The position numbers and the translations under genes were made by a program. From Minisyncoccia bacterium (GTDB lineage Bacteria; Patescibacteriota; Minisyncoccia; Phycocordibacterales; Phycocordibacteraceae): 59,432 bases of DNA. Numbering within the stretch: the first letter of the stretch is position 1; each line of letters starts with the position of its first letter. The notes below the pieces were generated by a model. The model was not told the DNA's origin. It saw nothing but the letters and a program-made list of their open reading frames with translations, and did no database searches. Shown in pieces: positions 35,615 through 36,568 of this stretch. Location of the stretch: NCBI GenBank assembly GCA_038207395.1, contig JBBQZW010000001.1, positions 208,862-268,293 on the forward strand, in the 5' to 3' direction.

Positions 35615-35690
35615 TGGAGCCATCTCGGAGGTTCGAACTCCGGACCTTTTCGCTACGAGTGAAATGCTCTACCAACTGAGCTAAGATGGC
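35615..35690 (-). tRNA. tRNA-Thr(CGT)
   Basis: GCCATCT/AGATGGC stem, CT-CGT-AG loop, TTCGAAC T-loop, CCA. Confidence 0.92.
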
Positions 35691-35705: not shown

Positions 35706-36167
35706 TCATATTCGCTTTTCTCGAGCGAGTCGAGCAAGTTCTTTCGCTTCTTGGGCGCGCTTACTTGGGGCACGAAATGGCCGACCATTTCCCTTGTTAC
35801 TTCCGGCGAATGTCGGATTCAAAGCATCGCAATTTGGACATATGAGCCGTAAATTCGCTTCTGTGTTATTTCTCCAATTGCCATCTATGTGATCCGCGAC
35901 AAGTGGTACAACTTTTGTCTTTAGATTTACTTCTGACCAATCACACAAATGACACTTATTATTAAATTTTTCTCTAAGAAAACGTTTAATTTGATTTGTG
36001 ACAATACCCATACTACTTAATCCACTTACTTTTTTATCTTTCCAGGCGTCAATATATTTTTTATATTCATACTCACGTTGGCAAGCATTGCTGCAATATT
36101 TATAAAAAGAACGATATGGATCTTTGCCGCACATCAAACAAGGAGTCCGAGGCTTCTTCGCATTCAT
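35706..36167 (-). CDS. Free-standing HNH endonuclease with N-terminal zinc finger
   Basis: CLMC..YCSNAC; CHLC...DHIDGNWRNN..NLRLICPNC; AT-rich; lies between two tRNA-Thr genes. Confidence 0.85.
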   Translation of the reverse strand: MNAKKPRTPCLMCGKDPYRSFYKYCSNACQREYEYKKYIDAWKDKKVSGLSSMGIVTNQIKRFLREKFNNKCHLCDWSEVNLKTKVVPLVADHIDGNWRNNTEANLRLICPNCDALNPTFAGSNKGNGRPFRAPSKRAQEAKELARLAREKRI

Positions 36168-36307: not shown

Positions 36308-36568
36308 AGCCGATGGGCAGAATTGAACTGCCGACCTACTCCTTCGCTTACACCTCCCCTCTAAACCACGCGGAGAAGGGCTAGACTGTATCTTCATCTC
36401 TAAGAGATGCCCTTGTCAGTCGTTCGGGCGTACACCAGTGAGATATACGCCACGGTCTTGGCCTGTGGGGCTATTAACCGTAATTCGGGATTCACCTGGG
36501 AATCACTTCCCAGGTGGGCGGAGTCTGCGACCCACCATGGAGTTGCTCTACCCCTGAGCTACATCGGC
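36308..36568 (-). tRNA. tRNA-Thr(GGT), intron-containing (exons 36534-36568 and 36308-36344)
   Basis: Spliced sequence GCCGATGTAGCTCAGGGGTAGAGCAACTCCATGGT|AAGGAGTAGGTCGGCAGTTCAATTCTGCCCATCGGCT folds into a full cloverleaf; CCA not encoded. Confidence 0.92.
36345..36533 (-). ncRNA. 189-nt group I intron at tRNA position 36/37
   Basis: 5' exon ends in U, intron ends in G; P2 CACCTGGGAA-GTGA-TTCCCAGGTG; P7 GACTG/CAGTC; P8 CATCTC/GAGATG; J8/7-P7' AAGATACAGTC. Confidence 0.88.

Follow-up and report, generated by a model that had tools for sequence, protein, structure and literature searches.

A tRNA-Thr(GGU) gene interrupted by a compact group I intron in a Minisyncoccia bacterium

Where does the genome of a Minisyncoccia bacterium (GenBank assembly GCA_038207395.1) keep its gene for transfer RNA (tRNA)-Thr(GGU), when ACC and ACU make up about half of its threonine codons (6546 of 12991, counted roughly over frames that run for 200 codons or more without a stop) and default annotation returns no such gene? 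The question is raised by a stretch of 59,432 nucleotides (nt) of contig JBBQZW010000001.1, positions 208,862 to 268,293, which we call the window and whose own coordinates are used below. Default ARAGORN finds four tRNAs in it, and Rfam at its gathering thresholds finds the same four and no intron, much as an earlier note on this DNA had expected of standard annotation. We conclude that the genome's only tRNA-Thr(GGU) gene very probably lies here on the reverse strand, interrupted between tRNA nt 36 and 37 by a 189-nt group I intron that carries no open reading frame (ORF) and that would be removed by the usual two-step splicing reaction set out below.

The two exons can be read directly. The 5' exon (nt 1-36; 36534..36568, minus strand), assigned from its sequence, from ARAGORN and from an intronless allele, runs from the acceptor strand (GCCGAUG) through the D arm and one strand of the anticodon stem (ACUCC) to AU-GGU, with the anticodon at its end. 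The 3' exon (nt 37-73; 36308..36344, minus strand) continues with AA and GGAGU, followed by the variable loop (AGGUC), the T arm, CAUCGGC and, at 36308, a discriminator U; CCA is not encoded. Between them, after U36, lies the insert (36345..36533, minus strand; intron nt i falls at 36534 - i), which begins GGGTCG, ends GTAAGCG and contains neither an ORF nor terminal repeats. ARAGORN run with introns permitted, a check that the earlier note had proposed, gives a single 73-base cloverleaf with a 189-nt intron at these same coordinates.

The boundaries are exact because the same-genus relative G018 carries an allele without the insert. In a DNA search both halves of the gene are 100% identical there and directly abutted, the alignment joining query positions 47|237, that is, window positions 36534|36344, and ARAGORN reads the G018 gene as Thr(ggt) (locus L019). 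All 12 of the intronless orthologues that were confirmed (9 in one set of loci and 3 in another) are likewise Thr(ggt). ARAGORN in its free mode labels the window gene Arg(gcg), with the intron after nt 33/34, and in its fixed-position mode labels it Thr(ggt). The three possible registers produce different mature loops and are hence distinguishable, and only the 36/37 register has a U before the 5' splice site (U-1) together with a G as the final intron base (omega-G, at 36345). That a tRNA-Thr(GGU) gene is split at this position, after a U, by a 189-nt insert ending in G had been claimed from the single sequence; the abutted halves in G018 bear it out, as does the presence of U-1 and omega-G in 83 of 83 sequences of the comparative set introduced below.

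The host genome (722,734 bp in 6 contigs, with a completeness rating of 95.6%) has 37 tRNA genes by default ARAGORN and 38 when introns are allowed. It also has Thr(cgt), Thr(tgt) and a separate Arg(gcg), and no second Thr(ggt) gene was found in the tRNA scan of this assembly, to which the same completeness rating applies.

Does the insert fold as a group I intron? Its minimum free energy (MFE) is -76 kcal/mol, compared with an average of -58.5 for 200 dinucleotide shuffles (z -3.7), none of which folds as well. RNAalifold, applied unguided to 20 whole homologous genes, returns all four stems of the tRNA, that of the anticodon being closed across the intron, and inside the intron the paired segments P1, P2, P4, P5, P6, P7, P8 and P9; compensatory changes occur at 33 of the 65 pairs. 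The fold listed in the earlier note, with its P1 ending in a U.G pair, 10-bp P2 capped by GUGA, P4, P5, P6, P7, P8, joining segment J8/7 AAGAUA and P9, was in this way recovered independently, although the list had missed P3 and P9.0, and P9 takes the covarying register 155-160/176-181. With the P3 pseudoknot added, 97.4% of the cells in the 20-gene alignment are paired, against 37-47% for slid partners, and none of 500 shuffles reaches any of the measures. The set was then enlarged to 83 sequences (the window, 19 relatives and 63 from a 17-mer scan of a genome collection), the records being titled as many different lineages of the Candidate Phyla Radiation (CPR). Across these the 50 pairs of nine helices, P1 to P9 with the P3/P7 pseudoknot, are 93.2% paired (slid controls 31-46%), double changes are found at 31 of the 50 pairs, no shuffle in 500 attains any measure, and 57 alignment columns are invariant. 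Comparative analysis thus confirms the compact, ORF-less group I core.

The individual elements, all on the minus strand, follow the expected order. P1 (36517..36536) pairs exon G34, G35 and U36 and intron nt 1-3 with intron nt 12-17, so that the guide GCC faces the anticodon and U36.G15 stands at the 5' splice site; its exon pairs G:C, G:C and U.G are each present in 83/83, and its inner three pairs covary. P2 (36493..36516) has 10 bp, with 9 of 9 counted pairs compensatory, and is capped by the GUGA tetraloop L2 (36503-36506). P3 consists of just 3 bp, CCC at 36487..36489 (intron nt 45-47) with GGG at 36410..36412 (nt 122-124), forming a pseudoknot with P7; all three pairs covary and 100% of their cells are paired in the 83 sequences. 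The P4-P5-P6 domain (36427..36481) contains P4 (36476-81/36452-57), P5 (36469-71/36461-63; 3/3 pairs covarying in the larger set), the loop L5, CCACA (36464-68), and P6 (36442-51/36427-36). P7 (36383..36423), which encloses the 3' strand of P3, P8 and J8/7, is built from A111:U151, a bulged C112 and GACUG (113-117) paired with CAGUC (146-150). An A:U pair, a bulged C and then a G:C pair is the usual shape of the group I guanosine site, and by this analogy P7 would be the guanosine-binding helix, with G113:C150 beside the bulged C112. J8/7 (36389..36394), AAGAUA, is nearly invariant and equals the consensus of the Rfam group I model RF00028, to which J8/7 and the 3' strand of P7 (GAAGAUACAGUCUAG) both align. 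P8 (36395..36409) is the hairpin CAUCUC-UUA-GAGAUG, in which 6 of 6 pairs covary; it is the likely receptor for L2.

The 3' end of the intron is held by P9.0 (nt 153-154 with 187-188) around P9 (155-160 with 176-181), together occupying 36346..36381, and both covary. P9 does so at 5 of its 6 pairs in the 83 sequences, and the two pairs of P9.0, directly before omega-G, are GC in 61, AU in 18, GU in 3 and other in 1 for one of them, and CG in 50, UA in 24, UG in 7 and other in 2 for the other. A different P9 register, taken from the single-sequence MFE fold, was rejected, being only 51.6% paired. For P10, the pairing of the 3' exon with L1, no convincing conserved partner was seen when judged by eye.

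Two peripheral contacts appear to hold this core together. L2 is a GNRA loop in 82 of the 83 sequences, and its type goes with the structure of P8: GAAA (31) or AAAA (1) is found with a P8 that starts ..RCU.. and has an asymmetric, receptor-like interior in 32 of 32 cases, and GUAA, GCAA, GCGA, GUGA or GGAA with a plain-helix P8 in 51 of 51. The L9 loop of the window, GUGG (36366-36369, minus strand, inside P9), is not a GNRA loop and is complementary to CCAC of L5. Within the clade to which the window belongs CCAC/GUGG, CCAU/AUGG and CCGC/GCGG interchange as L5/L9, other clades have quite different complementary L5/L9 pairs of 5-7 nt, and a few relatives have GUAA or GCAA as L9. In the 73 of the 83 sequences with a short L5 and a long enough L9, the summed longest Watson-Crick run between L5 and L9 is 259. 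Reassigning the L9 loops at random among the sequences gives 190.2 +/- 6.9, and none of 1000 such permutations is as high as 259. These changes indicate that a 4-bp L5-L9 kissing pair probably stands in place of the L9 tetraloop-P5 receptor contact.

How widely is the intron distributed? A DNA search of the window genome and 60 relatives gave a match in 40 of the 61. At the 29 loci examined, 19 tRNA-Thr(GGU) genes are split, with introns of 176-235 nt, 9 are intronless Thr(ggt) genes and 1 is cut by a contig end. The earlier note had called for such a survey of relatives. ARAGORN labels the 19 split genes Arg(gcg) (12), Thr(ggt) (5) or His(gtg) (2), and all 19 read ..TGGT | intron ..G | AA... 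Carriers thus make up 20 of the 60 sampled relatives (one copy being cut by a contig end), and the split gene usually adjoins tRNA-Thr(cgt). Among 36 genomes of the window's genus the intron is present in 14 (again with one contig-end-cut copy) and confirmed absent from the gene in 7, while 6 give exon-only matches, left uninspected, and 9 give no match. That alleles with and without the intron are mixed in this way within a single genus implies that it has been precisely lost, gained or both, on repeated occasions. An intron tree keeps the genus together in a clade of 24 rows (Shimodaira-Hasegawa approximate likelihood-ratio support 97), so that inheritance there looks mostly vertical, with losses.

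Beyond these relatives, an exact scan with the invariant J6/7-P7 17-mer over a collection holding one genome per species found at least 120 stretches; by our own arithmetic about 70 chance matches would be expected across the whole collection. The 80 loci examined comprise 68 split tRNAs, 1 apparently decayed copy, 4 cut copies and 7 chance-like matches, and a strict rule requiring Thr(GGT), U-1 and omega-G parsed 67 of them. The record titles are mostly of Patescibacteria: Kaiser-, Taylor-, Wolfe-, Moran-, Jorgensen-, Lipton-, Vogel-, Yanofsky-, Azam-, Nomura-, Ryan-, Uhr- and Buchananbacteria and 'Saccharibacteria'. Genomes of only 0.9-1.2 Mb stand behind four records titled Gammaproteobacteria or Bdellovibrionales. 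Intron lengths run from 158 to 235 nt, with a median of 192, and 67 of 83 are shorter than 205 nt. A covariance model built from the 83 sequences (R1; made with the MFE-derived P9 register, which renders its scores somewhat conservative) has one match only in the window genome, at 189.4 bits. When 150 genomes were sampled evenly across the phylum, 8 had a strong match to the model (139-176 bits), in each case within a split tRNA; four of these tRNAs are called Thr(ggt) and four fall in the slid Arg(gcg) register. The intron is one of a large, previously little-described family of tRNA introns.

Several members of the family stand out. The smallest, L074 (L074:294-467 (+) / L201:1474-1705), has 158 nt, lacks the P9 hairpin and ends ..CAGUCUAGCCAAAAGCG|AA; its host has a 1.2-Mb genome whose record is titled Gammaproteobacteria, and its P3, UCU/GGA, is a compensatory variant. 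Six weaker R1 matches (19-29 bits; L154:1754-2028 (-), L162, L164, L161, L163, L166), with provisional boundaries, lie in other split Patescibacteria tRNAs, among them a tRNA-Tyr(GUA) with a 192-nt intron that adjoins a split tRNA-Thr and tRNA-Asn(GUU) genes with 305- and 502-nt inserts. In one relative (L033:195-560), just downstream of an intact intronless tRNA-Thr(GGU), there is an intron copy whose 3' exon is normal but whose 5' half is defective, with neither the acceptor strand nor the D arm properly formed; it is apparently a decaying duplicate. In one CPR genome (L156:522-1436 (-)) the split tRNA-Thr(GGU) is followed immediately by a phage-type integrase gene, which suggests that the tRNA gene may serve as an integration site.

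The cultured Niastella populi CCTCC AB 208238 (8.6 Mb) has a 181-nt copy (R1 179.7 bits; L094 / L198:1471-1725 (-)) on a contig of 300 kb, as well as a second, intronless tRNA-Thr(ggt) (L202:1883-1955). The exons of its split gene are 79-90% identical to nine CPR tRNA-Thr genes, compared with 75% to its own intronless copy, and a tyrosine-recombinase (phage integrase) gene lies immediately downstream. These features hint that the whole split gene was imported, perhaps at the edge of an integrative element. Splicing is thereby directly testable in a cultured bacterium.

What reaction would this structure support? In the precursor the guide GCC (intron nt 15-17) would pair with the anticodon GGU to form P1, leaving U36 in its wobble pair with G at the splice site. 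Free guanosine, held in P7 at G113:C150 beside the bulged C112, would attack after U36. Omega-G189, positioned by the 2-bp P9.0, would then occupy the same site, and the freed 3'-OH of U36 would attack after it, joining the exons and giving a normal anticodon loop, AUGGUAA. The catalyst would be a minimal core of the Azoarcus type, its P1-P2, P4-P6 and P3-P7-P8-P9 domains tied by the 3-bp P3 pseudoknot, and the fold would be stabilised by docking of L2 (GUGA) on the P8 helix and by the 4-bp kissing pair of L5 (CCAC) with L9 (GUGG). That the reaction takes place in the cell, and that it does so independently of protein, we infer from this architecture and its conservation.

Several points weigh against this account. 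No experiment or RNA read shows ligated exons. Six RNA runs contained only small shares of the sequence words sought, and the RNA reads are uninformative for or against splicing, since two of three runs gave one contig each, with the 5' exon only and then unlike sequence (other organisms' tRNA genes), and the third gave none. RF00028, the model that the earlier note had proposed to run, has a gathering score of 50 and gives the window 12.3 bits (E 1.6 over the 501 bases searched); among 20 relatives it reaches E <= 1 in one only (L104, 23.1 bits). The gathering score is a detection threshold and not a defining property. In the RF00028 alignment J8/7-P7 fits well, and the window's P4 is set on the model's enclosing helix, which from its position we take to be P3. 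P4 is nearly invariant and all 6 pairs of P7 are invariant in the 83 sequences, so that these two helices are supported by conservation and not by covariation. The 3-bp P3 and the non-GNRA L9 are two altered features of the usual Azoarcus-type fold. The shuffle and permutation controls ignore relatedness among the sequences, although the number of distinct pair types per position is independent of it, and the association of L2 with P8 falls on the deepest branching of the intron tree, which is weakly supported, and may therefore record one or a few events. Finally, tRNA-Thr(UGU) might read ACY codons, so the cell's need for the split gene is presumed.

How, then, do other explanations fare? 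The insert could be a genuine group I intron whose splicing in the cell depends on a protein cofactor or chaperone. The short P3, the absence of an L9 tetraloop from the window and of P9 from the 158-nt relative would suit such a dependence, as would the generalisation, in the accessible part of PMC2813881, that most group I introns recruited protein cofactors and few minimal ones rely on direct RNA contacts. The L2-P8 and L5-L9 contacts are nevertheless kept by covariation, as expected of a self-folding RNA, and the intron has no linked gene that would be a candidate cofactor, since the HNH ORF next to it, described below, is found beside intronless alleles too. We therefore think a cofactor requirement improbable, though it deserves to be kept in mind. 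It is a good deal harder to believe that the intron is a decaying relic and the split gene a pseudogene that yields no functional tRNA. The lack of RNA evidence for splicing, the decayed look of L033 and the second, intronless tRNA-Thr(ggt) in Niastella are what that view can draw on, yet the window gene is the sole Thr(ggt) gene of a nearly complete genome, and both the tRNA stems and all the intron helices are maintained by compensatory changes across 83 species with U-1 and omega-G invariant.

Two further readings concern what the gene and the insert are. Run with -i, ARAGORN returns Arg(gcg) i(34,189) for the window, and Arg(gcg) also for 12 of 19 relatives, which would make this a tRNA-Arg(GCG) gene with its intron between nt 34 and 35. 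Such a register would, however, place G and not U before the 5' splice site and give a product unlike the intronless alleles, which are GGT; in 5 of the 19 relatives only the Thr register is possible, and the genome already has a separate tRNA-Arg(gcg). A20 is an identity element of arginine tRNAs, and D-loop position 20 is here U. We find this reading scarcely credible. The chance seems slighter still that the insert belongs to another class of intervening sequence, for example the bulge-helix-bulge introns spliced by proteins, or insertion elements. It shares with protein-spliced tRNA introns a location in the anticodon loop, but it sits at 36/37 instead of 37/38, only excision at 36/37 reproduces the intronless alleles, and its junctions fall in P1 and after P9.0. 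The complete set of group I helices covaries, the core aligns to RF00028 in J8/7-P7, and an ORF and terminal repeats are lacking. Throughout, a tRNA-Thr(GGU) gene interrupted by a group I intron accounts best for the observations.

Why has such a gene been missed? None of the 12 seeds of RF00028 is bacterial (Williams 2020, bioRxiv 10.1101/2020.01.27.920355), and tRNAscan-SE 2.0 is, by its own paper, not designed for the detection of group I introns. With default tRNA finders and Rfam both passing the gene over, tRNA-Thr(GGU) will look absent in many small-genome bacteria.

Relatives of the intron are also found in viral sequences. The 17-mer has matches in 14 viral contigs, of which 6 are matched by the covariance model at 46-102 bits, and at none of the 14 loci does ARAGORN detect a tRNA gene. 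Two of the contigs (L219:1220-1791 and L218) carry the relative, at 87-89 bits with R1, inside the template repeat of a diversity-generating retroelement, with a reverse-transcriptase ORF just downstream (RVT_1, E about 5e-15 to 8e-15). The upstream variable repeat has no intron and is colinear with the spliced template, which implies that the template RNA must be spliced before complementary DNA is synthesised. In L219 the two exon ends map to adjacent bases of this intron-free repeat, and 16 of 16 differences between the repeats fall at template adenines. The retroelement 5' exon, like that of the tRNA, ends in GGU. The main texts of two large surveys of diversity-generating retroelements do not mention group I introns. 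Three more viral contigs (L205, L212 and L215) are grouped with these two. In another viral contig (L220:732-1695) a GIY-YIG endonuclease ORF lies between the 5' and 3' intron halves, the classical form of a mobile group I intron, and in L221:1501-2444 a similar GIY-YIG ORF separates the main match from a second, weaker one. Searches of phage and plasmid collections with the whole gene by blastn in its 'distant' mode gave no match in either.

An intron that comes and goes within one genus and has relatives in phage genes, some of them with a GIY-YIG ORF, has the marks of a mobile element. A larger proposal would be that these introns form an undescribed minimal subclass of group I (158-235 nt, a 3-bp P3, an L5-L9 kissing pair and one member without P9) that splices itself without protein, includes the smallest natural group I ribozymes and spreads by reverse splicing into RNAs that offer 5'-GGU-3' to the GCC guide. 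We put this forward tentatively and consider it, taken as a whole, rather doubtful. If it were true, spread by reverse splicing would explain why close relatives occur in the anticodon loop of tRNA-Thr(GGU) across Patescibacteria, in one cultured member of the Bacteroidota, in phage genes and in the template repeats of phage retroelements. The family would in any case serve as a natural experiment on a minimal ribozyme, in which one core is combined with interchangeable peripheral contacts: GAAA with a receptor-like P8 or other GNRA loops with a plain helix, and a GNRA L9 or L5-L9 kissing.

Between the split gene and tRNA-Thr(CGU) (35615-35690) lies an ORF for an HNH endonuclease of 153 amino acids (35706..36167, minus strand), identified by phrog_1271 (E 2e-17) and by Pfam HNH_3 at 15.9 bits, below the cut-off. 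It was considered as the intron's dedicated homing partner and rejected, occurring also beside intronless Thr(GGU) genes. By tblastn and profile search over all loci the ORF is present beside 5 of 19 intron-bearing relatives. A whole-genome search gave 10 close orthologues, which end 14-40 nt before tRNA-Thr(CGU) or lie near it; the accompanying Thr(GGU) gene is intron-bearing in 5 relatives (6 with the window), intronless in 4 (in one of which the HNH ORF has an internal TAA) and 2.8 kb away in 1. Less closely related paralogues stand directly beside tRNA-Thr(UGU), Leu(UAA), Ser(UGA) and His genes, and at 28 of 30 loci (window 35706-36167 (-) and L168-L196) the HNH match has a tRNA gene within 150 nt. 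A gene found beside tRNA genes with or without an intron appears to be a tRNA-associated selfish gene in its own right. From their sequences and surroundings these HNH genes look like free-standing homing endonucleases that target tRNA genes, and they may hitch-hike by co-conversion. The other ORFs in spacers downstream of split tRNAs are unrelated to it (NUDIX, GDSL lipase, DNA methylase and integrase). Elsewhere in the host genome, outside the window, the tRNA set includes tRNA-Ile(UAU) and tRNA-Arg(GCG) (G000:C2:169967-170041 and G000:C2:53095-53169) instead of the usual Ile2(CAU)/Arg(ACG) pattern, and only two CAU tRNAs were found.

How does the intron compare with those already known? Williams (2020) raised the number of bacterial tRNA settings for group I introns from four (Leu.3Ug, Arg.5Ug, fMet.2Ug and Ile2.5Ug) to 21, of which 17 were new, and reported 0.49 interrupted tRNA genes per genome in 'metagenomic assemblies from unnamed phyla'. 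Threonine is absent from the four classical hosts, as one would expect had the earlier note been right to call the host tRNA uncommon. That work, which also supplied the model gpI_bact_tRNA, took the same approach as ours, finding split tRNAs through ARAGORN and a covariance model, but its first pass needed at least 18-20 bits with RF00028, a level below which the window falls at 12.3 bits. In the accessible text of Lui 2021 (PMC8172020), some tRNAs of circularised CPR genomes are described as hard to detect owing to group I introns. Group I introns are also known from CPR rRNA genes (Tsurumaki 2024, PMC11270868, as cited in the accessible part of PMC11809585); these belong to the same phylum and the same class of RNA, whereas the window intron is 189 nt long, ORF-less and housed in a tRNA. 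The earlier note had left open whether the insertion was already reported in Patescibacteria: tRNA introns of this class in the CPR are, but in the literature searched we found no description of a group I intron in a bacterial or CPR tRNA-Thr(GGU), which may be among the 17 new settings of Williams (2020). Group I introns in CPR tRNAs are thus already in print, and what is new here, in structural terms, is a P3 of 3 bp, the pairing of L5 with L9 and the range of sizes.

The introns of tRNA-Arg(CCU) ('Arg.5Ug'), tRNA-Leu(UAA) ('Leu.3Ug') and tRNA-fMet ('fMet.2Ug') are also anticodon-loop group I introns with U-1 and omega-G, all of subgroup IC3 (Williams 2020); compared here by description only, they differ in host tRNA and, for Leu and fMet, in loop position as well. 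The closest likeness is to the intron of Azoarcus sp. BH72 pre-tRNA-Ile(CAU) (IC3; 'Ile2.5Ug' in Williams 2020), which likewise follows the third base of the anticodon, again a U, has no ORF, is very compact and possesses a core running from P2 to P9 with no P5abc. According to the accessible part of PMC2813881 its L2 docks on P8 and its L9 on P5, and the window family would use the same L2-P8 contact. The window intron departs from it in its host, tRNA-Thr(GGU), in its guide, GCC, and in its P3 of 3 bp. Its L9 is not GAAA, being instead Watson-Crick complementary to L5, and its L2, GUGA, faces a plain P8 helix, in place of a GAAA loop on an 11-nt receptor, a contact described in the accessible part of PMC2275092. 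With P2 present, no P5abc, an anticodon-loop site and an L9 that in the window is not GNRA, we call the intron IC3-like and stop short of assigning it to IC3. The Azoarcus intron is about 205 nt long, compared with 189 nt for that of the window.

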